Assembly: GCA_030704615.1 (NCBI GenBank)
Contig: CM060731.1
Coordinates: 75,702,001-75,766,000, forward strand
Direction: 5' to 3'
DNA length: 64,000 nucleotides
Origin: Takakia lepidozioides
Taxonomy: Eukaryota > Plantae > Bryophyta
Part shown: piece after piece, positions 1-64,000 of the stretch
Numbering within the stretch: the stretch's first letter is position 1
Layout of the letters: every line of letters begins with the position of its first letter
The notes under the pieces: model-generated
Told to the model about the DNA's origin: nothing
The model's input: only the letters and a program-made list of their open reading frames with translations
The model's database searches: none
Made by a program: the position numbers and the translations under genes

Positions 1-1129
1 GACCCAATTGTAGTGATTGGGGCGCACGGTTGGTTCAAGGTTATCTTCCTAGTCAAAGAGGGTTCCAGGTGAACCCTTGCTCAAGGTGATGCCAAAGCGG
101 CATCATGAGCGATCGCAAGCAATGTTGTTGCAGTAAGGCGATTCGATCCTCGGGGAGGATCGTTCCTTGGCCTTGAAGTAGGCCAAAAGAGTGCACTGGG
201 AGGAGCTGGAGAGGCTCCACCCTTGGCCGGGACTTGGAGGAAGTCGGCCGAACTAGCTAGTGGAGAGTAGAGTCAAGTGTGGGGTTTGGTTCTTTGCCAT
301 GGGACGCCATGGTACGGAAACAAACTCCTTGATGTGGGACGCCACAACTTGGATGTTCGTTTCTACAAAATGGACAAGTCGATGAGGACATCGACTCCCT
401 GTTGGTAGGGGTGTGTGTCGCGGCCCTTTGCCTTGAGGGCAGGGGGTCGGGACACATGAGGGGCTGCCCTGTGGGGGGGGCAGCGGCAGCGATAGGTATG
501 GGGGGCTGAAGCACCTTGAGTGCCCAAGGCACTCAGGGAAGCGGAGGCGCTCACTAGGTGGAGCCCCGCACACCGGGTTGCGGTGGGGGTGGCTCCACAA
601 GGGGTGGTGGTAGCTTAGTGGGACTTAGTGGGGGTGGCATAGGACTCACCATGGGGGCGGAGACCTCGTGGTGGGAGTCGTGGGGAGTCTTGGGACTCAT
701 CACGGTCCATAGGGGCCGTGGTGAGCGGGCCAAGACTCACCGCGACTCCCACCGGGAATCGAGGGTTTTCGTGGTGGTTCGCCATAAAATGGCATGGCTG
801 GTTGTGAAAACCCCCGGACAGCTACAGAAGTATATATAGGGAGTAGTAACCCCGAGAACGGTGCAAGCCCGTTGGTGACCAAAAACTAGTGAGTAAGCGA
901 GCGAGCCGGAAAGCGACCAAAGAGTGGGGAGCTGTTCCGGACTGCCATCTACCAAAGGGAATTCCACTAGGCCCAAATAGGTGGAGGGTCTTTGGGAAGC
1001 GAAGGGGACCGTTATGTCCCGGTGAGCAGCCGAAGCTCCAGTTGCCCGGCGGCCAGGTTGGGAGTCAGGCGCGCGCATCAAAGCGAGTAACTATGACTTG
1101 GGGGAGTTACCGAAGTGGTGCGCGCACGA

Positions 1130-1260
1130 GTTGGTGGGGCAGTGTTATATCCCATGGGCTTTATCCTGGACTTTGGGAGGAGTCACCATCCTACAGGCCT
1201 GGATGGCAGTCGGGGATGGTGTCGTGCACAGCTCTCTGTGACATTCATTGGGGGTCGGCT
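1130..1260 (+). pseudogene. C-terminal remnant of a retropepsin-like aspartic protease
   Basis: VGGAVLYPMGFILDF/WEESPSYRPGW resembles the (D)VLLG-x-x-x-L C-terminal retropepsin motif and lies just upstream of the rest of pol. The catalytic D(S/T)G is not in the window. Confidence 0.45.
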
Positions 1261-1574
1261 GCCCAGCGGGGCAGATGCCAACACTAGCCGCCTTTACAGC
1301 TGCAGTTAGTTGGCCTGGAGAGTTGCTGGAGGTATGCCCATGCAGAGGATGTGCCACCTCCAGCAGAGCATGACATGCATGGTACGCGGAGTTGCCTGCC
1401 ATGGTTGCTCACACTCCATTATGGGTACGAGCAAGGTTTGCAGCTGCTGATGGACGGGTACAACAAGCCTGGGTAGAGCCTTCGTACCGTCAAGAGAAGA
1501 GGAGAGTGCGGTAATTGCACCAGGACCCCTCAATTGTCGCCATTGGACCACACCTCTTGTGTGGCAGTGCCCGG

Positions 1575-2500
1575 ATGAAGGCATGCCTTCTGGACTTGTT
1601 TGGCGGATCAGCACTGGATTGGCTGCAGTACTGCAGCAGTGTACGAGTTCGACATTACCTGTATGTGGAGAGGATGACTGCACGACGCGTCTCACTGCCC
1701 ATGTTGCTCAGTTGGTACAGCAGTGATTTGTTGCAGTGTCTGCAGTTCGTGGATACCAACAAGCCTTGCCACAGACATTTCGTTGCTGGGGCGCAGGATT
1801 TGGAGCGGGTTGGCTCCATTGATCTGGTAGTGGCAGGTTGGCCCTGCCAAGGGCATTCATCAGCGGGCATGGCAATGGATTGCGAGACTCGAGGACGGGT
1901 CTGTTTTGGGAGATGGTGCGGTTTTGCGCCACTTGCAGCTTCATCAAGCTGTATCTCCACATACATCTTGGAGAATGTGCCACTGATGGGTGATTCTCGG
2001 GCCAGGGTGATGGCCAGTGCATCAAGTCCGGTCGTGGCTTGGTCAGCAGTGTTGCTGGATGCAGCTGCAGTGGGTCACGGGCTCATCGTCCACGATAATG
2101 GTGGACTAATGTGATGTCACCCGCACTGCTCAAGCATGCATTTGATGGGGTGCAGCGGCCAGCACACCTCACAGTGGATAGCATTTTGACACAGGGAGGC
2201 AGTCTCAACGTGTGAGACATGATGACCGTTCGCCTTTGGCAGTGGTCAACAGGGTGGTCAACCACGAGCAGCATACCTACACTGCTCAGCTTCCCAGGAT
2301 CCCATGCTTTTCGGATGGTGGACCTGGCCTCTTGTGGGATAGCCAGTTGCAACAATTAGTGGAGCCAATGCTGACGAGCGCGAGCGGGCAATGGGTTTTA
2401 CCACTGGTACCACGGCATCTCTTTCTGAGGCATCACGTCGTCAGGTGTTGGGGCAAGCAATGGATCTCAATTGCTTGACCTGGATTATCAGCTTGGCTAT
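1575..2500 (+). pseudogene. DNA (cytosine-5)-methyltransferase domain, DNMT3-like, inside the retrotransposon pol (frameshifted)
   Basis: Motifs in canonical order: I LLDLFGG (~1587-1607), II YLYVE, IV IDLVVAGWPCQGHSSAG (PC at 1842-1847), VI YILENV (1971-1979), VIII DAAAVGSRAHRPR*WWTN (~2058-2110), IX ERERAMGFTTGTT (~2376-2414), X RRQVLGQAMDLNCL (~2436-2477). Confidence 0.92.
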
Positions 2501-2869
2501 GGCCGAGCAGCGCAGAGTACGGAGTACACTTCCCTTCATGGTCTCCCTGCCTACCAAGACGGTACAGGCAGCGAGTGGGGGCGAGCAGGTGAGGACCACG
2601 AGGTGCAGGCCGCATCCATGGCACACGTGGGAGGTGCTCGAGGTTGAGAAGGAGTTGGCAGCCAAGGCAGCTGTGATGGATGAGGTTGGGGATTTCTCGG
2701 GTTGATGGGTCCTCAGGATGAGATGATGGGGCAGGATGAGGCCTTGTCATTGACTGAGCAGGGGTAGTACTGCTCAAGAGGTTGCAGCATAGCAACCACG
2801 GGACGCGTCCTCTACCTCTAAGCCCACTGGACTTAAGGTTGCAGTTACGGAGGACAATTGGGAGCCTGA

Positions 2870-4262
2870 CATTGGACCCATTGTCACCGGAGGAGAGAGA
2901 CGACGTATACGGTGGTTCCTGAGGGCTTACAGGAATTGCTTTGCCTTCAGTTTGAAGGACTTAGGAGCACTGAAGGGTCAAGATTCGCATTGAATTGGCT
3001 ACTGACACGCCAATCTTTCGGAGACCCTATAGATACAGTGACATGGAGAGGTCCTTGATTCAGATGAGAACTTTGGGAGGCTGGTTTGGTGGAGCTATCT
3101 GGGGAGAGTATGCTTCAGCCACAGTGATGCCAGCCAAGAAGGATGTCTATGGCAATTGGACGGAGAGACGTATGTGCGGTGATTACCGGCCTGTAAATCG
3201 TCAGACCAAGTCCGATAGGTATGCTATGCCGACACCAGAGGAGATCTTTGATGCCATTGGCATGCCAAGGTCTTTAGCACATTGGATTTACGATCCGGAT
3301 ATCACCAGTTGCCGATCAAGGAGGCGGATAAGCAAAGACGCATTCTGGGGGATCAATGAGCACGGGAAGATTGCCTATACCAGTGGCGGTTCTTACCATT
3401 TGGGCTTAAAAACGCTCCTGCTGAGTTTCAAAGAGTCATGGACAGATTCTAGCAGGGGTGGAGTTTGCTCGGTGCTACATAGATGACATCATCATCTTTA
3501 GTGCTACGGTGGAGAGCATGAGAGACACCTTCAGGGGTATTTGAGCGCTTGAGGGCGCACGGATTGAAGTTACATCCGGGAAGTGCAAGTTTTTCCACAA
3601 CCAGATTGAGTATCTGGGTCACATGATATATCCTGGAGGATTGGGGGTACAGCAGACTAAGGTAGAGTCCATTGCACAGGTTCCATGCCCCACGGATGTG
3701 AGCCGAGTTCGAGCTTTCATGGGGTTAGCAAACTATTATAGACGGTTTGTTAAGGGATTTAGTGCCATTGCAAAGGCTCTAACCAAGCTGACCAAGGTGG
3801 ACCAGGAGTGGCAGTGGGAAGATGAGCAAGAACAAGCTTTTCAAGAGCTCAAGGCGAGGTTGACCTCGGCGCCCATCTTGACGACCTATCAGGGGGCGTC
3901 CTTTCAGCTGCATACATTGGAGCATGCTGGGGCTTGGAGCGGTGCTCACACAGGTGGATGATGAGGGAAGAGAGTTCGTAGTGGCTTATGCTAGCCGCTC
4001 GAACAACGCTGCAGAGTCTAAGTATAGCTCATATGAGGAGAATGCTTAGCTGCAGTGTGGGCCGTGGCACACTTCAGGTGCTATCTATACGGCAATCTCT
4101 TCACCCTTGTCACGGATCACCAACCACTCAAGTGGTTGATGGAGTCAGACAAGCTTACGGGGAAGCTTGCACGGTGGGCACTCATCCTTCAAGAGTATGA
4201 CTTTCAGGTGTGCATCGACCGGGTTTGGTCAATCGCAATGCAGATGGGTTGAGTCGCAATCC
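2870..4262 (+). pseudogene. Reverse transcriptase + RNase H of gypsy pol (frameshifted)
   Basis: PIFRRPYRYS, RMCGDYRPVN, LDLRSGYHQ, LPFGLKNAP, CYIDDII (~3473-3493), KCKF..YLGH, AFMGLANYYRRFV, AYASR, TDHQPL, RWALILQEYDF, NADGLSR. Confidence 0.95.
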
Positions 4263-4599
4263 ATGCACGAGCCAGCAGGATGACACTGGAGCTCGGTGGC
4301 ATGGTGAGACGGATGTGGAGATGGTGCCCAGATGGCATGCATCTGCATTTCTGTGTATCTTGGCAGCGGAAGGCCAGGTTGGACTTGCAACAGGGATGAT
4401 TGTAGATCAAGTGTCTGAGGACCCTGAGGCCAGCAATGCAAGTGGCGCCAAAGATATACATGAGGATTCAGCTGTGTTGGACTATCTTCGCACTGGAGAC
4501 ACGGCAGCCACTGTGACTGCTAAGGAGAGGGATCGGATCCTACAACGAGCCAAGAGGTTCAAGTGGGAGGGGACACACCTGCTCCGAGTGTGGGAAGAT

Positions 4600-5893
4600 G
4601 GTTGAGTGAGGATTGTGCCTCACCCAACATAGCGGGCACGGTTAGTGCGAAATGCCTATGAGGAGTTGGGGCATTTTGGGGTGCGACGCACTCATAGTCT
4701 ACTGCAAGGGCAGTATTGGTGGCGTGGTATGCACACAGAGGTGCAACAATTTGTGGCTAGGTGCATGGTGTGTGACAGGGTGCATGCTTCATTCAACGCC
4801 CCTACTCCACAATTGCACCCTCTTCCGATCATGGGATTGGGCTACAGGTGGAGTCTTGACTTCGCAGGTCCGTTGCCACTGACCATGCGCCATAACAAGT
4901 ACGTGTTGGTGATGGTGGAGCACTTCTCCAAGTGGATTGAGTTGGTTCCATTGCCTGATAAGGCTAGTGAGGGAGCTCCATATGCATTCTTGGATTGTGT
5001 GCTTAGCCGATTCGGTGCTCCAGCTGAGGTACTCACGGACCAAGGGAGAGTTCTTGGGGGAGTTTCAGGCTTTGTGTGACAAGGCCTTGATAGACCACCG
5101 CACCACTTCTCGGGATCATCCTGAGGCCGATGGCTTGGCAGAGAGAGTTGTTCAGACAATAAAGAGGGGTTTGCGCAAGTATGGCTTGCAGAAGGGAACC
5201 TAGGAGATTGGGACCTTCAGTTATCCTGGTTAGCTATGGGCTACAGGTTCAGCAAGCAAGCATCACTTGCCTCCTTCTCACCATACTTTCTTCTCTTTGG
5301 CCGAGAGCTGGATTTGCCTACATCCATTCGCAGAGAAGCTGCTACAGTTCTTAATCTTGACGATCCGGACGTGTGGGCACGTGCATGTGAGCAGCGTGCA
5401 GTTATTCTAGAAATTCATGCCCATGGCTTTCGAGAACCTTGCCATTGCACAACACCGTGATACGTTGAGGTATGCTACCATACGTGGTGGGGGCTATCGT
5501 CCCGGGGTCAGGAGATTCAACCCTGGTGACTATGTCTATCTGCAGCAGACTGCTCCTACAACCTTGGATGTAATTGCAGGACGTGTTATTTTGAGGGTTC
5601 GAGAGGTCTTGCCCTCAGGCGTCTTGGTCTTGGAGGGTCGGGATGGCATAACTTGGAAGGACCATGTGCGTAATTGTGCGCCATGTCACCTTCCGAATGT
5701 CGATGGCATGATTGACCCAAGCCTAGCAGTGGTATCTGCAAGTTTGAGGTGCATGTTGTGTGGGTCTGCTGGAGGGGCAGCCACCATGCTGGTGTGTGAT
5801 CGATGCTCTAGAGGTTGGCATATGGGATGCTTGACTCCACCTCTTGAGATGGTTCCGGATGGGGATTGGTTATGTCCACATTGCATTGGATAG
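4600..5893 (+). pseudogene. Integrase with C-terminal PHD finger
   Basis: Zn-binding ...LGHFG...YWW...CMVC, core WSLDFAGP / VLTDQG / ADGLAER, then CMLC-x11-CDRC-x4-H-x2-C-LTPPL..VPDGDWLCPHC (C4HC3 PHD, ~5750-5885), ending at TAG 5893. Confidence 0.93.
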
Positions 5894-6153
5894 TGGGAGT
5901 GGATACAACCATGGAAGGCTAACAAGAAATGCAAGGCCAAGCTACTAGGAGACCTTGAACACACGAGATCTTGGCTCAAGTTCACAGATTGCAAGACGGC
6001 AACTAACGATGGGGCTACTCTTGTACCCGGTCTCTTGGTCTATAGAGTTTGAGTACAATAGGGACAGTGATAGAGGACTTAGTACGGCTGTGGCTATTAC
6101 ATCTTGTAGCTATCTGGAGGTAGAGGGACCTATCCACCAGCTAGGGGGGCGAT

Positions 6154-6685
6154 TGTGGCAGACTACTTTATTGTGCATATATGTGTGGTGTGGTTTGGAC
6201 AACAATGTAGTTGTGTAGCGATACGTATGCGCACAACAGCTATCAAGTTAAATAAGCACAGTGTGAAACTAACTAGAATAAAGCTAGTTATTTGTATTTA
6301 ACACTTGGATTTAGGTCAAGTGTTAAATCAGGTGTCAAGTTTAGTTTGACACCTGAACCGTCTTATCTTCACGAGAGCGTCAGTCGCGCAGCTCATCTCT
6401 CTCGAGTTGAGCCTGCACGACCGAGCTCCTTCACCGTTTAGAAGCTGAGTGTGCTTATGATGGGAGGATAGGTTGTTGTGGGGTGGAGTCCCCATAGCTT
6501 GGGGTGCCCCTGGCTCGACTTCTATTTTAAAGAGTGATGAGTGATGCTGTTGGTTTTCATGTTTCTTGTGTCAACAGTGTGTTATTAGCTTTCTTATCAT
6601 TGTGGCAGACTACTTTATTGTGCATATATGTGTGGTGTGGTTTGGACAGCGATGTAGTTGTGTAGCGATACGTATGCGTACGACA
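6154..6685 (+). repeat. 3' LTR (532 bp) of the DNMT-gypsy element, with an 85-bp direct repeat at both ends
   Basis: Starts TG just after the PPT and ends CA where unrelated MULE-like sequence resumes. 6154-6238 and 6601-6685 differ at 4 positions. Confidence 0.75.
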
Positions 6686-6879
6686 GGAGATTCGGCGCCA
6701 TTTTCTCAGACATCGGACTTGCGGTGCTCGACGAGACCTCCTCGGGCAACATCACGGGACCACGAGGGAGCGTGCAAATATTCTTGTCAGCTCGCCATGA
6801 ATCGTCTTCTCCGCCAGGTGCCTCGTCAAGTCTTCGTCTCACTGGACAGGTGTGAACATCTCTTTTCAAGTGTTGGCCA

Positions 6880-7940
6880 CTTCAAAGCAATGGCGTGCCC
6901 CGAAGGCCCTCTCGCAAGGCTGCCGCCCACTTGCGAGGATTCTTCGATCTGGAGGCAGTCTGCATCAGCATTTCCTGCCTGTCCGGCCCCAAGCCCCACT
7001 GTTTCCCTTTCAAAAACTCATTGTACCTGCATTGTTGCATAATTGACCTGACAATGTCCTCCGTTGTGGCAGTGAGGATGTCCACCAGATGCGCCGCAGA
7101 GGAGGCACGCAGGAAGAATGTACTAATTCGGCCATGTTTGTTGTCGGCATGTCGGTGTCAGAGTCGAGACACATTTCCTGTACATGCACATGTTTAGGTT
7201 ACAAGCAAATTACAAATAATGAGTAGCTAGCATAATATTCAACGGGACGCAAATTTGTCCAACTCACCTCCCGCATATAGTCGCCGAACTGGAGGAAACG
7301 ATAATGCCACCATGCTAGCCAACCAACCATTGCTCCCTCGTCTGATTTCTTTACAGCACCTGACGTTGTCCACCAAGCCCGTATACATGCAAACTATGTC
7401 TCTGCATCATCCAAGGTGGGAGCACACTTCCACGCAAGACACATGGAACGGTGCTCCTCTCTGAAATCTGGCGCCACGAGCCTGGTTGTGTACTGCGACA
7501 AGCTCTGCAAAAAATGGAACCCACAAGATCTCTCCTTGCTTTTCATCGGAACATTGGGGTCTTCCCCATACACCCTTCGGATGGCAGCCCAATTTGCTTG
7601 TGCGTTGTCCGCCATGAAACCACTAAAATTGGGAGGGGGAAATCCTGCCCTGGCCATCTGATCGTTTATTCCCTGCCAAAGAAGCATCTCCGATTGTGTG
7701 TCCTCTCCTTTCATCTCACAAATAACAATTGTCATTAGCATCCTGCAGTGGGTGTCGTAGACATGTGCACCCATTGTCACTCACTGGTGATTTGTAATTC
7801 GCTTGATATGGTCGAACATGACCAAACTGTTTGACAAGTCCCCACTCGTCATCCAGTGGACCAGTTCGACGCCGCTGCCAGGCCCACACGTTGACATTTT
7901 GAATACGAAACATCGATCTGCGTCAGTCCCTTGTCTGAGA
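6880..7940 (-). pseudogene. Mutator-like (MULE) DDE transposase fragment with an intron
   Basis: FVFKMS..FDH..., FSGFMADNAQANWAAI...ERSCGFHFLQ (D and CxxH), then a GTGAGT...TACAG intron (~7268-7178) followed by MPTTNMAE (third catalytic E). In-frame stops are present. Confidence 0.7.
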
Positions 7941-8640
7941 CAGAGAACATCCCTCGGATGGAAAAACGGCGCCGAATCTCCAATGAGGCCATTCGGATGA
8001 AGTTGTCTCGGGGGTAGAGGCCGACACCTGGCCTACAGAGAATATCCCCCGGATGGCAAAACGGCGCCGAATTTCCATCCGAGGCCGTTCGGATGAAGTT
8101 GTCTCGGGGGGAGAGGCCGACACCTGGCCGACAGAGAACATCCATCGCATGGAAAAACGGCGCCGAATTTCCATACGAGGCCCGTTGGATGAAGTCGTCT
8201 CGGGGGGAGCGGCCGACACCTGGCCGACAGAGAACATCCCCCGGATGGAAAAACGGCGCCGAATTTCCATCCGAGGCCGTTCGGATGAAGTCGTCTCGGG
8301 TAAAGAGGCGGACACCTGGCCGATAGAGAAGATCCCCCGGATGGAAAAACGGCGCCGAATTTCCATTCGAGGCCCGTCGGATGAAGTCGTCTCGGGGGGA
8401 GAGGCCGACACCTGGCCGACAGAGAACATCCCCCGGATGGAAAAACGGCGCCGAATTTTAGGACGAGGCCCGTTGGATGAAGTCGTCTCGGGGGGAGAGG
8501 CCGACATCTAGCCGAGAGAACATCCCTCGAATGGAAAACGGCGCCGTATTTCCATCCAAGGCCGCACGGATGGAGTCGTCTCGGGGGGAGTGGCCGAAAG
8601 AGATCATCTGCAGGATGGAGAAACGGCGCCGAATATCCAT
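7940..8640. repeat. Tandem array, 96-bp unit, ~7 copies, palindromic core
   Basis: CGGCGCC at 7967, 8062, 8158, 8254, 8350, 8446, 8539 and 8624. Core CGGATGGAAA-AA-CGGCGCCG-AA-TTTCCATCCG. Confidence 0.95.
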
Positions 8641-8779: not shown

Positions 8780-9070
8780 GAGACAAATTCGGCGCCGGAT
8801 TTCCATCCATGAGGTGGACCGATTTACTTGCACGATGGAAATTCGGCGCCGGTTTTCCATCCTGCAGCGCTCCGGTTTACCTGCAGGATGGAAATTCGGC
8901 ACCGGTTTTCCATCCTGCAGCGCTCCGGTTTACCTGCAGGATGGAAATTCGGCACCGGTTTTCCATCCGGCTGCTTCTGGATGAGAACGTCTCGGGCGGA
9001 GGGAGGGCCACGGTGCGTCCCACTTCATCCGCTGAATGGAAATTCGGCGTCGTTTTTTTCCATCCAGCGG
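8780..9070. repeat. Tandem array, 53-bp unit, same palindromic core in the opposite orientation
   Basis: GATGGAAATTCGGC at 8834, 8887 and 8940, with arms CTGCAGGATGGAAA...TTTCCATCCTGCAG. Confidence 0.9.
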
Positions 9071-9399: not shown

Positions 9400-11758
9400 C
9401 AATGCGGCAATGCCGACCAGCCGAACGGCGACAAAGCAACAACGCGCCTTCTGTACAGGTACATACGCGTTGCCTTTCTTTGATCCGGGCCATTGTAATC
9501 CCTACATTTCCAGGATGTAAGTTGCCTTATGTGGCGCATAAAAATTAGTTGTGAAGCCCCTAGAAAAATGGCGCCGAATTTCCTGTTTCCGGCCATGGGG
9601 CGGATGGCTAAGCCCGGGGGTGGCTGGCACAGTTTGGAAATTCGGCGCCATTTTTCCAGTTCCGGGCCCAGTCAATTCTGGGACTTAGCCATTTTCGGAC
9701 CCTGTACTGGAAAAATGGCGCCATTTTTCCAGTACAGGGTCCGAAAATGTCTAAGTCCCTGGGGCGGATGGCACATATTCTGGAAATTCGGTGCCATTTT
9801 TCCAGTTCCGGGCCCAGTCAGATCTGGGACTTAGCCATTTTCGGACCCTGTACTGGAAAAATGGCGCCATTTTTCCAGTACAGGGTCCGAAAATGGTTAA
9901 GTCCCTGGGGCGGATGGCACATATTTTGGAAATCCGGTGCCATTTTTCCAGTTCCGGGCCCAGTCAGTTCTGGGACTTAGCCATTTTCGGACCCTGTACT
10001 GGAAAAATGGCGGCATTTTTCCAGTAGGGTCCGAAAATGGCTAAGTCCCTGGGGCGGATGGCACATATTCTGGAAATTCGGTGCCATTTTTCCAGTTCCG
10101 GGCCCAGTCAGATCTGGGACTTAACCATTTTCGGACCCTATACTGGAAAAATGGCGCCATTTTTCCAATACAGGGTCCGAAAATGGTTAAGTCCCTGGGG
10201 CGGATGGCACATATTCTGGAAATCCGGCGCCATTTTTCCAGTTCCGGGCCCAGTCAGTTCTGGGACTTAGCCATTTTCGGACCCTGTACTGGAAAAATGG
10301 CGCCATTTTTTCAGTACAGGGTCCGAAAATGGCCAAGTGCCTGGGGCGGATGGCACATATTCTGGAAATCCGGCGCCATTTTTCCAGTTCCGGGCCCAGT
10401 CAGTTCTGGGACTTAGCCATTTTCGGACCCTATACTGGAAAAATGGCGCCATTTTTCCAGTACAGGTCCGAAAATGGCTAAGTCCCTGGGGCGGATGGCA
10501 CATATTCTGGAAATCCGGCGCCATTTTTCCAGTTCCGGGCCCAGTCAGTTCTGGGACTTAGCCATTTTCGGACCCTGTACTAGAAAAATGGCGCCATTTT
10601 TCCAGTACAGGGTCCAAAAATGGCTAAGTCCCTGGGGCGGATGGCACATATTCTGGAAATCCGGCGCCATTTTTCCAGTTCCGGGCTCAGTCAGATCTGG
10701 GACTTAGCCATTTTCGGACCCAGTCTGGAAAAATGGACATGATTCTGTCTGTGTTTTTTCAATGCAGGTACTGTAAGTTCTCCTTGTTGGAGAAAGGTCA
10801 TATGTCCTTCCAGCCGCCATTGTTCCTCGAATGGAGGAACCCTGGAGCTGACTCCATGTACACTGACGTTATCGTGAAGGAGTGGCATCTGGAGCATTTG
10901 CGTGACTGCCCTTGGTATGTGGACCTTCCGCCCGGCTCCCTCGACTCATCCGAGTTCCAATTGAAGCTGGATGCGGAGGCCCGACCAAACCGAGCTCCGC
11001 TGCCTCCGCTGGGTCCAAAGGAGGCGAAAGCGCTTGTCAAGTCCAGGAAAGCGGCAGAGCTTGCTTAGGCAGGTATTCAGGAGAAATTGAATGAGAAGAA
11101 TAAAGGACAAATGAAAAGGACACGGAAACAGGGGAGTAAAGTAACCCCCAAAAAACAGAAAACCACCGGGGCACCAGAGGAGGCGTAGGAGGGGCCCCAA
11201 GGGAGTGACTCCGATGACGATTTTGTGCAAGGTCCTGCGACTGCTGCTGCTACTACCAAGTCACCGGTCGTCCGGGTTCCCACTCAGTTCGGATTGGGAC
11301 TGGCTCTGCCAAGAAGTTGGCATTTGAGGGCGAGCCTACACGGCGGTATTCGGCGGTGACGTTTCCACAAAGGCCAAAGTTAGAATCCCCAACTATCATC
11401 CAATGCGCCAATGAGAGCTTTCTTGATACTCTGGCTGCCAGGGCAAAGAAGGTGGCACACAGCAAGTCTCTGGAGGAGCTGAAGGGGAAAGCCAAGAAGA
11501 GGGCTGCTGCTACAGAGCCTAAAGACACCGCTGGTTTGGAAGCCATGATGGAATTCTTCACGGCTGTGAGCACGGATTGCAAGAGCACTCGGGGGGGGGG
11601 GGGGTTGAGGTGGAGAGAACCTGCGATATGATTCTCCTCAATATTCCAGATGGGGAGCTGTTGGAGGGCCTGGATGGTGTGCCCACCTGGAACAGGTTTA
11701 CGGAGGACTACTGGAGAGCCGGGTTTGGGCTGGCGGGGATGCTCCTGGATGACGGTGG
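9400..11758 (+). pseudogene. Decayed accessory gene, probably of the MULE-like element, split by an intron holding the 146-bp array and cut by an LTR at 11759
   Basis: Donor GTAAGT at 9517 and acceptor TGCAG at 10767 are phase-compatible (..PYISR-M-YCKFSLLEKG..). The reading continues through K-rich and SDSDDDF segments to CDMILLNIPDG..LLDDGG, with stops and frameshifts. Confidence 0.5.
9630..10735. repeat. Tandem array, ~146-bp unit, ~7.5 copies, each with an 80-bp palindrome
   Basis: TACT(G/A)GAAAA at 9705, 9851, 9997, 10141, 10287, 10433 and 10578. The consensus GGGACTTAGCCATTTTCGGACCCTGTACTGGAAAAATGGC|GCCATTTTTCCAGTACAGGGTCCGAAAATGGCTAAGTCCC is its own reverse complement. Confidence 0.95.
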
Positions 11759-12589: not shown

Positions 12590-15500
12590 CACAGTTTACT
12601 GCTTAGGATCAGTAAATCTTTGTGAACGTGGTCCTGTCTGTTTGTGAGAGTGCCTTGGAGGGCTCTCTGTACGTGCCCGAGTTCTATGACTGCTTGCTGG
12701 AGATGCTTGAGCTGTACTTGAACCTGATTTGTTGCCCTTTGACTGAACCGGCTGTAATGGCTCTGGTGTGGGAGATCCCCGTCGTTTCTTGTCGTGCAGT
12801 GCTTGATCATATTCCTCCCATATGTCAAGAGTTTGTTCTGAAGATTCAACTGTTGTGTCCGAATCTGTTTCAGTCCTGCAGTTTTTTGGTTTTCTTGCTT
12901 TTCTTGGTTTCTCTGGAATGAAAATTGGCACAGTGTGGCCCCACCATGTCAGGAACCTTAAGCTTCACAACGTTGTGTAACCTGTTGAAAGCAAGTTTAT
13001 TGAACTTCAACAATTCCTTCTCAGTATAGGTGAGAGGTGTGCCAGTAACTTTGGAGCAGTATAGGTATTGCCAAGCTGCCTGCTCCTTATTAAAAATGTC
13101 GTCAATATGCCGTTTTTCGTTGCTCAAGTTGTTCCAGGCCATGTTAAACCATGAACGGAGTTGTAAATCCCTCTGTAACATGATTTTCACATCATATAAA
13201 TACGTATGATGCGGCACCACCGGTAAGGTCCAATGATCTGTAGTGGAATAAGTCCGAAATCTGGACTGCATCTTCTGCTGCTCAATGTGGTAACGTGCAA
13301 TGAAACAAGTAGTATAATAAATTCCACAGCCCATGACCAAACTCGCTACTTCCTTTGTTTTGGTGTGAATGTGCCCATGAACAACCTGGAAAGCAATTAA
13401 CTCCTTCAACATGGTGCCTGCCTCAGACCAGTACCTTGAAAAATGATGATCCTCAATGAGCTGATTCATTGCCAGAATCTTAGTCCGAGTGGCCACTGGC
13501 AACCAAATGCGCATTATTTGGTAGTAGTGCGGTAAAGATTGTGGAGGACCAAATTGATTCCAAGCCAAATCCAAGCTATCTGGAATTTCATTGAAGGGCA
13601 TGATCATTGCTCGGTTGTACTCCCGTGCAGCATGAGTCTTGGGTGGGTTGAAAGCAGCATTTCCCCATGTACAGCCACCTGCTGTGAAACTGGTTCTTTT
13701 GGTGTTTCCACCACTGGCATCCCCTGCACTTCTTGTGAAGAAGACTGGAAAACTAGAGTTCTGGCCCTCAAATACGCCTTCATGAGATGTTCTTCAGGAA
13801 CCATGAGCCTTTGGTCTATGTTTGAACTCAAGTCCTCCACTTGAGTCTGCAGTGTATCCACATCCTCTTGGAGCTCTCCTATTCTACTATAGACATTGTC
13901 TATAGTAGTGGTGGCAATATTCTGCACTTGCAGCCTCAGGTCATTCATCTCCCCCTGGGTGAGCTTTCTCGGTGCTTTCCCTTCCACTGGCCCTTGTGCT
14001 AACCATACTTTTAAAAGTTGGTCATCCACTCTGTCCTGTGTAACACCTCTGAGACTCTGCTCCTCCTTGAGTCTGTAGGCATCTAACTGCTGTTGCAATC
14101 CTTGCATGCGCTTCTCATGAGGTTCAACTAAATTGGCATAAGCTGCAGCCAGATTATTGGCTTCCCTCGCTGCCTTGTTAGCTACAGAGAGTTGATTCCT
14201 ATTCGCCATAAGGGTCTGTTGTAACTCCACAATGTACTTCTCCTGGTTAGCCTCAACCTGTTTGTATTGTTGTAAAGCACCCTCATTGTGACATATTGTA
14301 TCTTTGAGGTCCACAATGAATTTGGCTTGCTCCACTACCTACCTCCGTTTCTGCCCTTACACATCGCTCCCTCTGCTGGTTGGCTTCTGTTGTGGCTTGC
14401 TCTAGAACATTTGTGAGGGTGGCACATTGCACCGTCATCCTTTGATGTACTACCAACTTCTGCATGTTGTTCCTTTAGTCCTTGCATCTCATCCTCATGC
14501 TTGTTCTGCAATTGGAATAATTGCTGCTTGTGTATCTCGTGCAGATGGTCTTGCTCCAGACCCCCCTCAATCAGTTGCTGCTTAGCAATTTGCAGAGCAT
14601 CCTTTGTTTCCCTCAACTCCTGTTGCAACTGCAGATGCACTTCCATCTCAACTTTGTTAACACACTCGGTTGCCAACCGATTTTCGAACTCTCTTCTGAG
14701 TTCCTCCTTCAGAACTTCCAACTGAGTCACTGGAACATGTGACTTCATGTAAGTTCCCAACAAATTGAGGGTTCGGCTTATGGAGTTCATCAGCATAGCC
14801 TGTTGAGGCCCATCATGGTTAACATGCTGCTGTTCACCCCCCTCATCCATAGGATGATGCCTCACAAACCACTCAGGCCACTGCTCCACCAGATCCTCCT
14901 TCTCAACTTCCTCATTTCTCCCAGATGCTGCTGTGTCCTGATGTTCCTCTTCTGGAACTTGTGGCGCTGGTGGGGGTATTACCTGCACATCAGGAAGTTC
15001 ACTAGACAGATTTTGGACCTCTGGCTCCACTCTCTCTCTGAGAAAACTAGAGTCTTCATAGAGAAGATCACCTCTCTCAATCTCTGCCACCACTTGCTCT
15101 GTAGTTGGAATATCTAACCCTTATGTTTCCAAATCTATTATTTGTGGAGGAAACCGCATGGACCACTTGTGGTAACTCTCTGGCAAGCCGTTCACCTGGC
15201 TGTGATGGCTGTGATACTGAATTGACTTCCTGTTCCCTCTCCACAGGTTGTGCTGTTTGTAACCCTTGATCTCTGTGCTGCTGTATCCTCTCTTGCACAA
15301 GAGCTTGAGTAACTTCTTCCTCCGGCTGCCTTGTAGCCAATGGTTCGGCTTCCAACGTGATCCCTTTCCTCTGTCTTTTGGGCTGTTGATGCTCTGCCAA
15401 TCCCCTTCACCCTGTGAAGAACCTTGCTCTTCTATGGTAGTGGTTGTTATTTCAAACACTCCCATTTCCTTCCTTTCTCTCGCATCAAGTACGCATGAGT

Positions 15501-16725
15501 CTAGGATGATTTGTGCAATGACTGGCCCAGATACTATGATAGGAGATTTAGCGGCAGTTCCCTGCAATCTTTTCATCTCCTCTACCTGTCCGTTGTACAT
15601 GATGTTCTCCCATGCTACCTCTTCTCCTCTCAGGCCTTTGAGTATTTCCTCTGTGAAGGATCTGCTCAAATACTGCTGGTTCTGTTTCATGGCAAACAGA
15701 ACGTTCAATATCTAGCCTACTTCCCTGAGCCCTGGGTACACCGCTTTGGTACAAGCATAGCCTTGAGTTTTAAAGAAACTCCCTTCTTCAAACAAATCTT
15801 TCATCTGCAATCTAGCCCTGTGCTCGTCCACATGAACCTGACCTGCTGGCAATGAAAACAGTTGCTGTAGGTATAAGGGAGTAAGTTCTAATTCAACTCC
15901 CTTCACCGTTGTGGCTCCTGTCTTTGGGTCAAAGTTCTGCAAGAATTCTAACATGTACTTCCGATGGTGCAATGTCCAATCCTTGTTTTGCAATCCTTCT
16001 AATCGCAGTTCCTTCAGTAACTTCACCGCGTATGGCGTTGCAATCGTCTATTTCTGCAGGATTGTGGTGCTTTTCACCTTGATGTCCTCCATCCCTCTTA
16101 CTCTCTTCATTTTAGAGAACCCGTAAGGCTGTGGCTGTAACAACTGAAGTAATGCCTGCAGAGCACAAAGCACAAACGTATGATTGCCACAAAATGCTAT
16201 GGGTAGTGTCCTGTAAACCTGCGGGGCTTGCATGCATTGATCAAGAGAAAAGTTACTCTCCGTTGTTCTGTTTCCTCGCCACTGCGTGAGTAGTATCGCG
16301 AGCGTATAATCCGCTAGTTCCCTCATAGCTTCAAAACTATCGCATTGATTGTCTGTCCCGTCGAGACGCCCATTACTTGGAACGACGCCGACTCTTGCGC
16401 TCAGAACCTTTTCACTTTCTTGAAGTTGCTCCTGCTTCATGATTGGCTGTAACCGCTGTGACTGGATTTTAAAATTAATTTTCTTTAGTGGATTTTCCCT
16501 GCTGGCCTGTCCACTAGGATAACACACGTGACAAGAAATTCGTTTTTCTGTACTCGCCGTATGTTCCGTTACCCTTCTTGCGTATGCATTAATGGGCCCG
16601 CCATCCATCCTCTTTGACGTAGTAGGTAGGTACTTTGACGGCCACTCCTGTCCTTTTTCTTGATGACACTTGTTCTTGCAGCTCCTTCTCAGCTGTGCGT
16701 CACGGCTTGACTTCCATGCGTCCAC
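12590..16725 (-). pseudogene. Extra sense-strand ORF(s) between integrase and 3' LTR (Athila-accessory-like N-terminus, long coiled coil, unknown C-terminal domain)
   Basis: Chain of abutting ORFs (16048-16725, 15712-16026, 15121-15708, 15077-15400, 14335-15093, 13604-14335, 12870-13607) broken by single stops or frameshifts. Contains LEFLQNFDP..VKGVELELTPLYLQQLFSLP and Q/E/L heptad-rich segments. Confidence 0.65.
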
Positions 16726-17683
16726 TTTTTAACTGTCTTCCGCCCTTTCTTCCGCCGGCCATTTCCCTGATGTTATCCTTTGTCCACCTGTCACTAATCC
16801 TATGGACTGTGTAATTCTGATTGGCTGTGTGAGGCTATGACAGGCTGTGCCGCCCTGTGCTAGGCTGTGCGCGACTGTGTGACACTGTGTTGGGATGTGA
16901 TAGGCTGTGTGACCCTGTGTTGGGCTGTGATAGGCTGTGTGACCCTCTGTGATAGCTATTTAAACATCTGTGTTTTCCGCTCCTCACCGGTTTAACGACA
17001 AGTATTCTATGCTCCGTTGGTGTTACTGGAACAACCTGTATTTGCTCCTGTGGTTCTATATGCAAATCGTGCCTTAATGGCTTGTCATGGATACCACTGT
17101 ATCCTTTGAACTTGTTGGCATTGACCATGCCCAGCATTTCTTTGTTAATGGTTTGTAACATGGCCGTGTTGTTATCATACATCTTTTGTATGACATAAGG
17201 TCCTTTCCATGGCGATTTAAGCTTAGAAGCCTTAATCTTTCCCTTCTTCTGCAACCACAAAACCAAATCTCCTGTTTTGAAAGTCTTCATCTTCCCTTCA
17301 TCAAACTGATCCTTCCTTTTCATCTGTATTCTCGTCATGTTGTCAGCTGCATCAGCTCGTACTTCCTCCATATGGTATAATTCATGTTTCCTGACCTTAA
17401 TTGAATCTTCCAATTCCATTCTTCTTCCCCATTCAGTTCTCATAGTAGGTAATAAAAACTCCACTGGAAGTAAAGCTTCCATACCATAAACTAATTGGAA
17501 TGGTGTATACTTAGTGGTGACTTTATATGAAGTCCTGTATGACCACAAAGCTGTCAGTAGCTTTGTATCCCAGTCTGTTCTGTTTGCATTGACTATTTTA
17601 GCCAAGATGGTACATAGTATTTTGTTGGTAGCCTCTGCCTGTCCATTACCTTGTGGGTAATAGGTTGTACTTTTCCTATGCAC

Positions 17684-42194: not shown

Positions 42195-42600
42195 TCACCA
42201 GTTTTCCACCCAAGAGAACATCCATTCTTGGAAGTGGTGAAAGCGGCCCGCATCCGGTGCAACAACTGCTTGCCTGACAGTCTTCAACATGAACATGATA
42301 GGCAGTGTCCAATCACCACACACCCAAAGGTTCTTGATGAGGTGGACAGGCACCCCAGGGGCTTGGCGATGAGCCCAAAATCAAAGGCTGGCTTCTCACT
42401 GTGGTGGCCAAGAAAATTTTCCTTTTGCTCCTCCTCCACATCATACAATACTCAGTGTGGGTCAGACAAGTACCCTGCCTTATTCATCAGCCCAGCCAAT
42501 CTTTGCAGCTCAGCATGGATTTCCTTGATTTGTGGATACAGTTTTTCTACAACAACCATATGCACCCAGTTGTCCACCTCAATGCAGCTGCAACCTGCCT
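42195..42600 (-). pseudogene. Decayed E+/DYW deaminase domain, out of frame with the PPR ORF
   Basis: AGCSCIEV..KAGYLSDPH*VLYDVEEEQKE..HHSEK..FGLI / IKNLWVCGD / DAGRFHHF / ENW*, with one stop and at least 3 frameshifts. Confidence 0.9.
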
Positions 42601-45600
42601 CCTCTGTTATCCATCGCTTCTCTCATGTTTGCTTTATCATCCCACCTGCCAGCTGCAGTATGTATGTTTGATAGTAGAACATAAGCTGCAGCATTCTGTG
42701 TATCACATTTAAGAATATATTTTGCCACGCGTTCTGCTAACTTGACATCAGAATGAATTCTGCAAGCACCAAGCAATGCCCCCCACACCGAAGCATCTGG
42801 GTTGATTGGCATTTTCTTGATGAAATCCTCTGCCTCGTCCAATCTCCCTGCCCGTCCAAGAAGGTCCACCATGCAGCCAAAATGCTCCACTGTAGGAGTG
42901 AGGCCATGATCTCGACTCATGGAATCAAAGTAGTGATGACATTCCTCCACTAAGCCCACATGGCTGCAAGCAGAGAAAAGGGATATGAAGGTAATGCTGT
43001 CTGGCTTCAAGCCTGCCTGTTGCATCTGTTCAAAAAGTTGCAGGGACTCCCTACCACATCCATGCTGAGAATATCCTGCCATCATTGCGTTCCATGAGAC
43101 CACATCTTGTTGAGCCATATTGTCAAATACTTGGCGGGCATCCTTCACACTCCCACATTTTGCATACATATCAACAAGGGTATTCTCCAGAATAATATCT
43201 GGCCCAGTTCCAGCTTTGACAATGTCTGCATGGACTTTTTTGCCCTTTTCCAAGGCTCCTAGGCAGGCACAAGCATTGACAGCACAAATAAATGTGACCT
43301 TGTCGCACGTCACCCCTTCCCATTGCATTTGCTCATAGATCTCAAAAGCCTCCCTACCACACCCATGCTGGACATATCCTGCAATCATCGCACTCCATGA
43401 CACCACATTTCGTTGAGCCATGTTGTCAAAAACCTGATGGGCATCCTTCATGCTCCCACATTTGGCATACATGTCAACAAGGGCAGTCTCAAGAATTGTA
43501 TCTCCATCAATTCCAGCTTTAATGATGTCAGCATGGACCTTTTCCCCCTGTTCCAAGACTCCTAGACTGGCACAAGCGTACAGTGCACAAGTGAAAGTGA
43601 CCCTGTTGGGCGTCACCCCTTCTTGTTGCATTTGCTCATAGATCTTGAAAGCCTCCACCTCACATCCATGCTGAGCATATCCTGTGATCATTGCACTCCA
43701 CGAGACCACATTTCGTTCAGCCATACTGTCAAACACTTGATGGGCATCATTCATGCTCCCACATTTGGCATACATGTCAACAAGGGCAGTCTCCAAATTA
43801 AGATAAGACTCAATTCCAGCTTCGATAATGTCAGCATGGACTTCTTTGCCCTTTTCCAGGTCAGTTAGGCTAGCACACGCATTGATAACAGAAATGAATG
43901 TGACCCTGTCCGGCCTTACCCCTTCCTGTTGCATTTGCGCATAGATCTCGAAAGCCTCCCTACCACACCCATGCTGAGAATATCCTCCAATTATAGTGTT
44001 CCATGATATCACACTTCGTTGTGCCATCTTGTCGAACACTTGACGGGCATCCTTCATACTCCCACATTTGGCATACATGTTAACAAGGGCAGTGTCCAGA
44101 AGAATGTCTGGTGCAATTTCAGCTTTGATAATGTCAGCATGGATCTCTTTGCCCTTTTCTAGGGTTCCAAGGCTAGCACATGCATTGAGAATGCAAGTGA
44201 AGGTGACCCTGTCCGGTGTCAACCCTTCCTGTTGAACTTGCTCATAGGTCTCAAAAGCCTCCCTAATACATCCATGCTGAGCATATCCTGCAATCATGGT
44301 ATTCCATGAGACTACACTTTGTTGAGCCATAGTGTCGAACACTTGACGTGCATCCTTTATACTCCCACATTTGGTATACATATTAGCAAGGGCAGTGTCC
44401 AGAATAGTATCCGACACAATTCCAGCTTTGATGATGTCTGCATGAACCTCTTTGCCCTTTCCCAGGGCTCCTAGGCTGGCACACGCATTGAGAATGCAAG
44501 TGAATGTGACTTTGTCAGGTGTCACTCCTTCCTGTTGCATTTGCTTATAGATCTCAAAAGCCTCCCTAACACACCCATGCTTGGCATATCCTGCCATCAT
44601 TATAGTCCACGTAAACAAAGTTCGTTCATGCATTTTGTCAAACACTTGGCGTGCATCTACCAAGCTGCCGCACTTGACATACATGTTGACCAAGGTATTG
44701 AGTAAAAACATGTTTGGCTTGAATCCAGTTTCGATGATGTGGGTGTGCACCTGCCTTCCCTGTGTTAGATTCTTCATGCTGATGCACTCTTGCAAGAGAC
44801 AGACACAAGTCTTGAAGTCTGCCTGAATGCCTGGCTGGTTCAGAACGTGCAATGCCTGTTTCAATTGTCCTGCCTCACATAGTGTCCTCACTTCCGCACA
44901 AGTGCAAGAAGAACTCTTGTTGACTGCCTCTTTTTGTCCGCTGTGAAAAGCAGTAGTGATAGTGTAGGTGCTGCCCCTGTTGTCAGTCTGATGTCCAACA
45001 AACAACTGGGACTGATTCAAACCTGCCTTTCTGCATGGTCAAAACTCTCTGTTACAACCTGTAGATTCAAACTCAAATTGTACATCTTAAAGCTGGTAGA
45101 ACTTCACAGAAAGATGAATCCGTGGGGATAACGTTCTTGCTATATACAAACAATGTTCCAGGAATTTGAAGTCCTCATCAAAACAGTACCGGCTGTATTC
45201 TCTGCCTGGAGCTCCATTGTTTACATCGATATTAGAACCAACACCAGATAGTGCTCGACCTTTTATCATGGCACCTAGCTCTGCCTTCATCCGAGGAGGG
45301 TTCAACCAACTGTCAAGCCAAAGGACCTCCTTTGTGCACTTATGTCTGAAGTTCGGTGATCTTGGACTTCTCTGTGAAAATCACAAATGGCCAGCTGAGC
45401 AGCCATATCTTCAAGCACGGCCTAGGGTAGAGCGCAAAGACTTTTCAATAATGGGAACACCCATGGATAACCGGCTATCCTGTCTTAGTAATATGGAAAA
45501 GAAATTACTCATGCCAAGATAGGTTTGCTTTTGCTGCTTTCTCACGATGAAGAGCAGGACTGTAGAAGGCAACTGAATATACAACACAGTGCAACAAAAT

Positions 45601-49633: not shown

Positions 49634-52600
49634 TCACTCTTTTATCACAAAAGTGAAACCACTCCCACAAAATACTCGAGGTTGGAGCTTGTGGTTTGAG
49701 CTACCCGTGTCACCGGAAACAGAGACCTCTGAAAGAAAACTGTGGTCTTCAATTGGTACATGTTGTGGAAGGTTCTGATCGTCAGTGGTGCCCAAACCGA
49801 GCTGCCCATGCTCTGCCCACCCCCAAACCATCACCGTGCCATCCTCTGCATTCAACCCCCATGATCTTAACATTACTAAACATCGCAGGCAGATAACATG
49901 AGCTCTACCTAATGATACCATCCACCTAGGAATTTTGAATAGCAACAAGTGTTGATCTTACCAAGTACAGCAGTTGAATGCTCTGCTCCAGCAGATACCC
50001 ACAATGCCCGCCTGCACCCTAGACTACCAACTTTTCGAAGCCCAGGCAATGAGACTTTTGAAATTAGCTGCACACCAACGTCTCTCCTCAGCTCACCCTT
50101 CCCTTCATCTTTGCCCACTGCCAAGGCCCTGCAAGATAAAGAAGCTTCCAGAAGGGCATGCTCATTGCTCTTCATGTTGCATATATGACCACTTTCTGCA
50201 TTTGCAACTGGGAAATGGGAGCCACCCCGGCTTTTCTCCAATGCATAGGATGTACTGCTGGCTACCATTTCAGACTGATTCTCTGCATCCTTAGAAGCTT
50301 CCTCACATGTTCTCCCAAATAGACTATGGGTACTGATCACATGGCTGTTACCAGAATCCTCATGACGGGTGGTGGACGTTTGTGATGCTCTCCATAAGCT
50401 GCTCTCTGTTTGGGGATCTGATGGCAGGTAGCAATCCGAATCCTGGGATCCCAACTGCCCGCAACGATTACTGCCCCATGCCCAGACCTGCTGTTCTTCT
50501 GCACTAGGTTGATCATACCGGAATTAGACAGTGGCACAATAACATTGTATCTCCACTAGTCCTCCTAGAATACTCTGGAAGTTCAAAAGTAGGGTAAACA
50601 TTATGAATAGTAATCTGACACATGCTATGTCCTCGAGTACTATATCCATCTATACTTGCAGGTGACCTGTCCTTTGAGAACAAAGTAGAAGCGTTCAGAC
50701 TGGTACCTTGCACAAAACTCAATTTGGATTATCAACAAATGATCCGTGAAGTTCAGTCACACCTGAAAGAGCCAGACCGTGGCTCCAACCAAGAGAGATT
50801 TGCCGTAACTGCAGACCTGAAGCTGCTGCAGAAGGAAGGAAAATATTGGGGCTACTGTTGAAACCCCTGCCCCAGATATACAAGTGACCTGTCCCTGCAA
50901 AGAAAAGAATGAGTTACAAAGAATGACTAAGTAGCCAAATCACTTTTGTGCATGCCTGCAAGTTTGCAACTTACCAGTCAGAGCAGCACTGTGATCTCCA
51001 TTTGCAGAAATGGTCACTATTCTCTGCATGTCCAACGCTGAGATGACCTGAGGGCGAGAAACTCGCCCAACCCCCTTGGTCCAGCTATCACTTCTCTCCC
51101 AAGGAGGAGTACCAAGCTGACCTCGTTTACTTGATCCAAATGCAAACACTCTTGCTGCCTCTGATGGCCCTGATGTAGCAGTCATAGCCAACAACCCTCT
51201 CACTTAGAGACCACCAGCCACTTTCCCACAGGAACTTGCAAATCATATATTATGAAGTGGATAAAGTTGATTGAAGTTCAGCAAAATTCTGTGGATGTAT
51301 CCATTGGCCACTGTTGACTATTTGATCAGAAGCTCATTTCGTCCGATTTGAAAGAGAACAATGGCAATTGCTTGTTGATAGGAGAATACCACTTGTAGTT
51401 TAGTTGTGTAGGTTGCTAAACAACAAACAACCTGACTGTAGCAGACTCTTCCCCATAGTCCAACCCCAGGGAAGAACCAAGGGTTCTTTCTTGCGTCGAC
51501 TTTGACAGACAAAATTTAACAACAGATTCTCACCTTGGACAAGGGCAAGAGTGTGGCGCATGCCACAGGCAGCCATGGAAACCCTGGCAAACGCCAGATG
51601 CTCAACTAGACAGGGCCGAAGGCGCACTCCAAAGTCATCAAGCCCAAGCTGCCCAAACTTCCCATCCCCGCATGTATAAAGTTCTCCACTCTCTACAAGG
51701 CACAAGACTTCCAATGTTATAGATCCTCCCTGGCTGTGTTCTGGTGTCTGCCGGTCTCTGCCTTGCTCCTATTCCACCCTCTCTCTGTCTGTTTATGTCT
51801 GTGCTTCTCCCTGTGCAAGGGGACATGGCCACTATGTTGGAAGGTTTCTTTCTCTCCTCCATGTATCCAGGGGAAACCTGCCAAAATCTACATACACACT
51901 GACCTGACCAAAATCTACTCCTATGTGCCACATGCAGCAGTGCAGCTGTTGTGTCCGGAAAATAATGAGACTTTACAAAAGAAGCCTATAGGTTACATAC
52001 CCCATGACTCTGACTTGGTGTCCTTCTGGCCTTCAAACTCAAGTTACAGTTGCAAGGATTTCTGAAATACTGCAGGACGCAAGAGCATTACGACGCCCTT
52101 GTAGAATTGAAGGAGGGAAAGCTGACCTGTAACAAAGGCTGTGTGGTTCCAGCCAGCAGCAACATTCTGGATTCGAAGACCCTGCAGTGGTTTGACAGGT
52201 CTTGGCAAGCTACTGCTTGCTTCATCACCATGACCAAGTGGCCCTGACTGACCACGTCCCCAGGTGCCCACTTCGCCTCCTTCTACATCAATCAACCACC
52301 GTGATCAACTGCAAATTTTGGCGGAGGAAACCCCCACGTTCAAACCATTCATGATCTCCGAAACCCACGTTGAAGGGGCCCATTCTTCAAAAAAGGAGGG
52401 CACCAAGGAAAGGGACAAGCCTAGTTGAACATATCAGCAACCTCTGAACTCATGGAAACTTAAAGCCCTTCCTCTAAGGTGACCAATTTGGCACCGCAAC
52501 GCATGCAGAGACCTTGCCACACATAACGCAAGGCCTGTCATCGGAATTTGCAGATGGCTGTTTGCCTCCATCCTTTCAGCTGAGCATTCTTCTACTCAGC

Positions 52601-63520: not shown

Positions 63521-64000
63521 GGCGTTACAGCTTTATTTACACGAAACATGAGGTATTTGAACATATGATAGAAAAACCCCAAATCCTGGGAAGGACAAAG
63601 AAGGGAGGAAAGGGAAGCAAGCTAAACTATTTAAACTATTTAAGCTATTTAAACTGATCAAACTGAGGTGGGTCACTCGGTATCTGTTCTACAAAGTTTT
63701 ACGAGTCAAATTGTGTGTGGGGTGATCGTGTGTGCTCAAGGAAGAGATGATCATGGTGCAACACCTGCATGGGTGGAATGTGCCATGTGTGTCTGCAGCT
63801 CCATGCCTCCTCAGGCTTCCCTCTTCTTCCATGCGTGAGTTTCCTTGCTGGGTTGTCTCTTTTTCAGAAGTATAAGACTGGCTAGCATATCTCTATCTTT
63901 ACCTGTCGATTCCTGTTCCTCACAGCCCTTCCCCATTGGCTAATGCAGTTTGACAAGCAAGCACTGGGGTTGGAATTAGAGTAAGGAAACTCAAACAAGT

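Follow-up and report, generated by a model that had tools for sequence, protein, structure and literature searches.

In the accessible parts of the papers cited here, retrotransposons carrying their own C5 cytosine methyltransferase are described from Klebsormidium nitens and from dinoflagellates. KnitGypsy-Dnmt3 of K. nitens is a Gypsy element with the DNMT in its Pol frame and with repeats arranged as A-coding-B-A-B (PMC5890265). SymbioDIRS-Dnmt3 and SymbioLINE-Dnmt belong to other orders of dinoflagellate elements (tyrosine recombinase and LINE, respectively) and acquired their enzymes independently, according to the same paper, in which the DIRS-borne DNMT3 methylates CG de novo in yeast. 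The claim of retrotransposon-borne DNMTs is repeated for streptophytes and dinoflagellates in PMC12344493. In-frame stop codons upstream of the reverse transcriptase (RT) are also known, from the gag-stop-pol elements Tj1 and Tosmo (10.1101/2022.12.06.519325) and VdLTRE5 (PMC3441728), and keep Gag-Pol below Gag in such long terminal repeat (LTR) elements.

Here we analyze a stretch of 64,000 nucleotides from Takakia lepidozioides (assembly GCA_030704615.1, CM060731.1, positions 75,702,001-75,766,000 of the forward strand), called the window below; element coordinates are window positions. As read from its sequence, the window contains a broken Ty3/Gypsy retrotransposon copy from which gag is deleted; it belongs to a multicopy land-plant family with its own DNMT3-type methyltransferase (Table 1). 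We regard the family as a land-plant sister of KnitGypsy-Dnmt3, with a conserved and probably leaky amber codon that makes the DNMT part of the Gag-protease product. Like KnitGypsy-Dnmt3, the family has an intronless, unpermuted DNMT3-type domain with the key residues, DIRS-like split repeats, and purifying selection on the DNMT. It differs by its land-plant host and by the conserved stop that separates DNMT from RT, whereas the paper places the DNMT in the Pol frame. In the fission yeast elements the stop separates Gag from protease, whereas the present family has protease as well as DNMT ahead of it.

As far as our literature search shows, such elements are in print for algae only. No report of a land-plant DNMT-Gypsy element was found, most subscription journals being outside the scope of the search, in keeping with the original prediction, to which no described embryophyte family was known. 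The word "Marchantia" is absent from the text and supplement of PMC5890265 that were searchable and from the supplement of PMC12344493, the figure supplements, which could hold such sequences, being outside this search. The accessible parts of PMC10952607 make no mention of DNMT-bearing Gypsy elements, and the literature search returned none of six Marchantia gene identifiers with open Gag-protease-DNMT frames.

The methyltransferase domain and the state of the Takakia copy

The window copy shows the Gypsy domain order of RT, RNase H and integrase. RNase H, integrase and a PHD finger are clear in Pfam searches of single open frames, and the RT was recovered by tblastn and alignment. These domains run to position 5893 with 70-78% identity to four relatives, and the RT-RNase H part is 77-78% identical to a Calypogeia protein (P0210) and to two metagenome loci (L022 and L005; P- and L-numbers denote related proteins and related metagenome loci). 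Upstream, the copy lacks gag and the protease active site: the protease-like remnant proposed earlier is real, yet it is just the C-terminal end of the domain, and blastx of 1-1140 gives no other protein match. The window and other copies of the family part ways at position 1100.

In a frameshift-aware alignment (X at breaks), DNMT motifs I, IV, VI, VIII, IX and X lie in unpermuted order on the + strand, without introns and collinear with intact relatives, as the original prediction had it. Motif IV reads AGWPCQG, with the catalytic Cys codon at 1845-1847, and is followed by motif VI (ILENV, with ENV at 1971-1979), motif VIII (RAHRPR-stop-WWTN), motif IX (ERERAMGF), and motif X (RRQVLGQAMD). 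The DNMT alignment scores 889, whereas none of 20 shuffles exceeds 47. The domain is 62-69% identical to that of five close intact relatives, and 470-482 residues of the protease tail, linker and DNMT align with intact relatives at 64% identity. Because the motifs are spread over three frames in the window copy, Pfam sees motif IV only (PF00145, E 0.008, below the cut-off); the PF00145 search, suggested earlier in frameshift-aware form, is thus weak in single frames, and the domain is recovered by the frameshift-aware alignment.

The assignment to the DNMT3 type, rather than to DRM, is also upheld. A PDB sequence search with the intact relative P0008 ranks DNMT3A first (E 6e-12), followed by DNMT3B, with weaker and partial matches to DRM2 and M.HhaI; DRM2 matches query residues 44-170 only, as expected of a permuted enzyme. 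The AlphaFold model of P0008 has a predicted local distance difference test score (pLDDT) of 94, and its best fold match is DNMT3A on CpG DNA (E 3.8e-18), all 32 listed matches being DNMT3 entries. Animal DNMT3A, then DNMT3B/C, are therefore the best matches by sequence and fold, at approximately 22% identity and with no PWWP or ADD domain in the element.

Among the aligned rows that have the residue, the catalytic Cys is retained in 65/65 and the motif VI Glu in 66/66, so that the key residues named in the original prediction are in place; the two motif VIII Arg residues are kept in 64 and 65 of 66. The DNMT is under purifying selection between families, judging from the ratio of nonsynonymous to synonymous substitution rates (dN/dS) of 0.17-0.20 for L022 versus seven loci of the main metagenome family, a set that excludes the window copy and in which the between-family dS of 1.5-1.8 is near saturation. 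The check by dN/dS proposed earlier thus gives a low ratio within this limit. Among decayed copies of one family, dN/dS is 0.30-0.98.

Between 1130 and 5893 the window copy has 35 frameshifts and 5 stops. All 35 frameshifts are deletions of one or two bases, with no insertion. Eight decayed metagenome copies have the opposite pattern, with 0-2 frameshifts and 0-7 stops in the DNMT; for pol the corresponding counts are 1-6 and 5-14. In each of 12 listed indel rows (of 136), letters present in other copies are missing from the window. Because a pentatricopeptide repeat (PPR) frame at 42579-45038 stays open and all 35 frameshifts are small deletions, the assembly appears unpolished in repeats, and the frameshifts are probably uncorrected long-read errors over modest real decay.

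Relatives, trees and a second architecture

The family is multicopy, given that 81,138 contigs from one read run match 1-7200. When contig depth is summed, the DNMT and the RT come out at a similar order of magnitude, a figure that does not amount to a copy number. A search with the DNMT frame found 20 longer proteins, with gene models of Marchantia polymorpha, Calypogeia fissa and Sphagnum troendelagicum as the named sources. One protein cluster of 18 members holds several open Gag-zinc knuckle-protease-DNMT frames of approximately 1280 residues. The intact Gag-protease-DNMT frames of Marchantia, also of approximately 1280 residues (P0006, P0171, P0178, P0179), end soon after the DNMT, as do the related frames from Calypogeia and metagenomes. 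Of 78 metagenome loci, 70 were classified. The DNMT lies ahead of the RT in 40 of these and behind RNase H in 9; another 12 break off too early, and the remaining 9 have neither arrangement by this criterion, including two (L060 and L067) in which integrase directly follows the DNMT. Viral contigs contributed 30 loci with partial matches only (approximately 30-200 query residues), two of which served as outgroups.

A second architecture, RT-RNase H-DNMT-integrase-PHD in one open frame, is found in L057, L058, L060-L065 and L067, with L064 holding a Gag-to-PHD frame of 3329 residues. Among the best 150 protein representatives, 76 have the DNMT between RNase H and integrase, 18 have it before the RT, and 56 consist of the DNMT alone. 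The hosts of the elements with RNase H-DNMT-integrase order are probably green algae. No description of this architecture was seen in the portions of the literature examined.

The RT-RNase H tree was built with a quick method from 158 rows that passed an 80% length filter; it is midpoint-rooted, with no named DNMT-less Gypsy root, and its support values come from the Shimodaira-Hasegawa-like approximate likelihood ratio test (SH-aLRT). The window falls in a 12-row clade (SH-aLRT 97) with Marchantia, Calypogeia, L022/L054 and L004/L005. This clade is nested in a clade of 109 rows (99), to which Closterium and Klebsormidium proteins also belong and which includes all elements with the DNMT before the RT. 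The elements with the DNMT between RNase H and integrase fall outside it, and one Haematococcus RT is among them. The three Klebsormidium RT proteins in the 109-row clade, which may or may not come from DNMT-bearing copies, add to the likeness to KnitGypsy-Dnmt3; their RT-RNase H identity to the window is only 47-52%. The DNMT tree, which has bacterial or phage-like outgroups only and neither the Klebsormidium DNMT nor host DNMT3, recovers the same 12-row land-plant-type group (99), and both trees set the second architecture apart as a group. Distances in the DNMT correlate with those in the RT (rho 0.66 over 60 linked pairs, reached in 0/999 permutations), much of the signal being the split between the two architectures.

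Within the 12-row clade, the Marchantia RTs join L004/L005 before Calypogeia, at 75-76% identity. By their resemblance to P0009, L004/L005 are likely a peat-moss family, and the grouping could stem from ancient paralogous lineages or from horizontal transfer.

In a further scenario, which we hold to be somewhat less likely than not, an old Gypsy clade has carried a functional DNMT3 throughout the green plants at two sites, behind RNase H in one branch and downstream of the protease in the streptophyte branch. A land-plant sub-branch would then have gained the leaky amber codon, loading particles with DNMT at capsid level, so that new copies would arrive pre-methylated.

The stop codon and the role of the enzyme

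The original prediction placed the DNMT inside pol, in one open protease-DNMT-RT-RNase H-integrase-PHD frame. This part is not supported: a conserved in-frame stop precedes the RT, and the DNMT is the last domain of a Gag-protease-DNMT frame. In the column of window positions 2790-2792, TAG or TAA is present in 44 of the 49 sequences that extended far enough, out of 60 examined. The contexts are TAG CAA CCC (25 sequences), TAA CAA CCC (12), TAG CAA CCA (2), TAG CAA CTA (2) and others (3). Four of the five sequences that miss the column (L017, L018, L020, L024) have unrelated letters there, and the fifth, L052, has TAG CAA CCA nearby, off column.

Type I readthrough, known from tobacco mosaic virus, has UAG CAR YYA as its motif (PMC3542737). 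This motif is exact in the window, L022, L054, L055 and L052, and the main metagenome family differs from it by one base. As at a type I site, the exact motif in the window is followed by a coding frame in register. CARYYA occurs after only 3 of the 2696 + strand stop triplets in the window. Between 2767 and 2798, none of four read runs, one of them from another organism, has a variant at a level of at least 5%. From motif X to the start of the RT, the frame is maintained in 16/24 sequences, with the stop at one place in those. Between families, the final 40 residues ahead of the stop cannot be aligned, in contrast to the 66 residues past it (24-39 identities in 49-63 columns); these 66 contain no Met in the window, none before residue 48 in L022, and none that is shared. 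Readthrough is favored by this combination of unalignable residues before the stop, aligned residues after it, and no shared Met. A TGA at 2703-2705 ends the open frame of the window and is rejected as the family stop, since it lies off the conserved column.

On this sequence evidence, we lean towards a reading in which the DNMT3-type enzyme of the relatives is made at Gag level and methylates the new complementary DNA (cDNA) of the element. In a quite probable first step, the majority of ribosomes would terminate at the amber codon and a minority would read through, adding RT and integrase. The protease would then, with only slightly less confidence, release the DNMT, many copies of which would be packed per particle. 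Cytosines of the cDNA would be methylated before or at integration, so that the new copy arrives pre-marked and resembling host DNA, a step to which we give a little better than an even chance.

Several observations weigh against this reading. Loci were chosen by their DNMT, so that DNMT-less members fall outside the count, and most of the 49 sequences with the stop column are one family, equal to approximately five independent lineages. Exact CARYYA is present in the column in only 4/49, and in 37/49 an ATG comes directly after CAA CCC, a context compatible with re-initiation as well. Predicted proteins of relatives such as P0035, P0207, and P0293 and P0311 of Closterium run from DNMT into RT without a stop. 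Besides the near-saturated dS noted above, the comparison of L022 with L054 gives a dN/dS of 0.57 in the DNMT half and 0.16 in RT-RNase H. The element has a CpG observed/expected ratio of 0.51, compared to 0.43-0.46 in its flanks, and thus no self-methylation scar; CHG likewise shows no element-specific depletion. Lastly, the Klebsormidium Gypsy DNMT gave no methylation in yeast, a result that its authors call inconclusive (PMC5890265).

The last two points speak for the strongest alternative, which we regard as possible though clearly less probable: the DNMT may act outside the particle or on another substrate, such as host chromatin around the target site, rival elements or RNA, or may serve within Gag as a nucleic-acid binder without catalysis. 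Output at Gag level would also exceed the enzyme need of one cDNA. A mere binder is difficult to reconcile with the catalytic Cys, the Glu and the two motif VIII Arg residues being kept in 97-100% of aligned rows, and the second architecture, with its DNMT fused between RNase H and integrase, ties the enzyme to the cDNA complex. Methylation of the element's own cDNA appears the most likely role of the DNMT.

It is rather unlikely that, with the anatomy unchanged, pol arises not through readthrough but by re-initiation downstream of the stop or from an RNA that is spliced or subgenomic; the DNMT would then still be made at Gag level. In the main metagenome family the third codon past the stop is indeed an ATG, as is the fourth codon past the second stop in L043, and the CAA CCC context of the main family is one base from the readthrough consensus. 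However, a Met is missing there from the window and from L022/L054, CAA and two pyrimidines are retained in four lineages with diverged flanks, and the RT is in frame in the 16/24 sequences mentioned above. Very improbable, in turn, is the single open polyprotein of the original prediction, with the stop as decay. Single-frame protease-DNMT-RT proteins do exist in more distant relatives (P0035, P0207 and the Closterium models), but the stop is common to 44/49 sequences and has no variant reaching 5% in 4/4 runs, including that of another species. A chimeric assembly, or a single event in which a host DNMT3 retrocopy was captured, can be dismissed despite the badly broken copy and the apparently error-prone assembly, as one 5009-base contig of another organism spans 1288-2695 and 2769-6158 in order, from DNMT to PHD, 40 loci share this order, and the tree of the DNMT matches that of the RT.

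Land plants silence LTR elements by cytosine methylation, and a selected, element-borne DNMT3 in liverworts, mosses and Takakia bears on whether transposons pre-methylate themselves, a question left open by de Mendoza et al. (PMC5890265). The stop codon sharpens this question because it predicts the enzyme at the level of Gag and not of Pol. Marchantia gene models with open Gag-protease-DNMT frames (e.g., Mp_4g09160 and Mp_5g06330) are natural reagents in a tractable plant, and such models may inflate counts of plant methyltransferase genes.

Repeat structure and other features of the window

Table 1. Features of the Takakia element, in window coordinates
Feature	Position	Strand	Evidence
Long hairpin, presumed 5' leader	664..760	+	-79 kcal/mol, z -10.7; 0/200 shuffles fold equally well
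Aspartic protease remnant, C-terminal	1130..1215	+	tblastn of Marchantia and Calypogeia Gag-protease-DNMT proteins begins at 1130
DNMT3-type C5 cytosine methyltransferase domain, broken	1584..2520	+	16-17 frameshifts, 2 stops
Amber stop in type I readthrough context (TAG CAA CCA), end of Gag-protease-DNMT frame	2790..2798	+	Conserved in family
Reverse transcriptase and RNase H, broken	2793..4300	+	Pfam (RNase H); tblastn and alignment (RT)
Integrase, broken: H2C2 zinc finger and rve core	4633..5460	+	PF17921 E 1.4e-14; PF00665 E 3.5e-9
PHD finger, C-terminal, with stop	5750..5893	+	PF00628 E 2.4e-11
Polypurine tract directly 5' of first B repeat	6143..6152	+	Read off sequence; nucleotide conservation in 8 loci
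Repeat B, copy 1 (TG...CA)	6154..6238	+	88-bp direct repeat, 95% identity with 6599-6686
Presumed repeat A (5' copy absent from window)	6241..6598	+	Inferred from the B-A-B order seen in L041 and L026, both full-length
Repeat B, copy 2, 3' end of element (GACA)	6601..6685	+	Second member of the direct repeat

The full-length relatives L041 and L026 have the repeat plan A-coding-B-A-B (in L041, A 1676-2017, B 10238-10350, A 10350-10691 and B 10693-10805; L026 is alike), and the window keeps the polypurine tract, B, A and B at 6143-6685. TG...CA ends and 4-bp target duplications are found in L041 and L032; in L026 the duplication is not evident. The ordinary two-LTR plan is absent: the repeats are split, and none of six loci has the TGG start of a tRNA primer site after the 5' A. 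In L041, a 17-base stretch directly after the 5' A (2017-2033) is complementary to 1842-1858 inside A, and 0/1000 shuffles reach 12 bases. Elsewhere, the complement measures 8-11 bases in five loci, is absent in three, and has no boundary in two; the best complement in the window, which lacks the 5' repeat, has 9 bases. The L041 complement suggests Tf1-like self-priming, and from this one clear case priming would likely be tRNA-independent. Going by its Pfam identity, the PHD finger would steer integration by reading histone tails.

The stretch with the 664-760 hairpin is presumably the leader, as other copies continue on from there, and the hairpin could be a packaging or dimerisation signal. 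To the right of the element lie three tandem arrays, with units of 96 bp (7939-8597, 6.9 copies), 53 bp (8785-8968, 3.5 copies) and 146 bp (9604-10736, 7.8 copies), the last unit being partly palindromic. An integrase-like relic of another LTR element is present at 17132-17674 on the - strand (tblastn E 2e-11), with long open frames on the same strand at 12870-15711.

The PPR frame, on the - strand, is open over 819 codons and has an E motif; its matches have identities of 36-53%, highest to Diphasiastrum models, and the named ones among 120 listed are all from land plants, in agreement with the land-plant host assumed by the original prediction. We take it to be probably an organellar RNA editing factor. 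An exon with an RCC1 repeat lies at 49909-50523 (-), and the frames at 61012-63524 (-), where Pfam gives no match, resemble what we presume to be a LINE relic.

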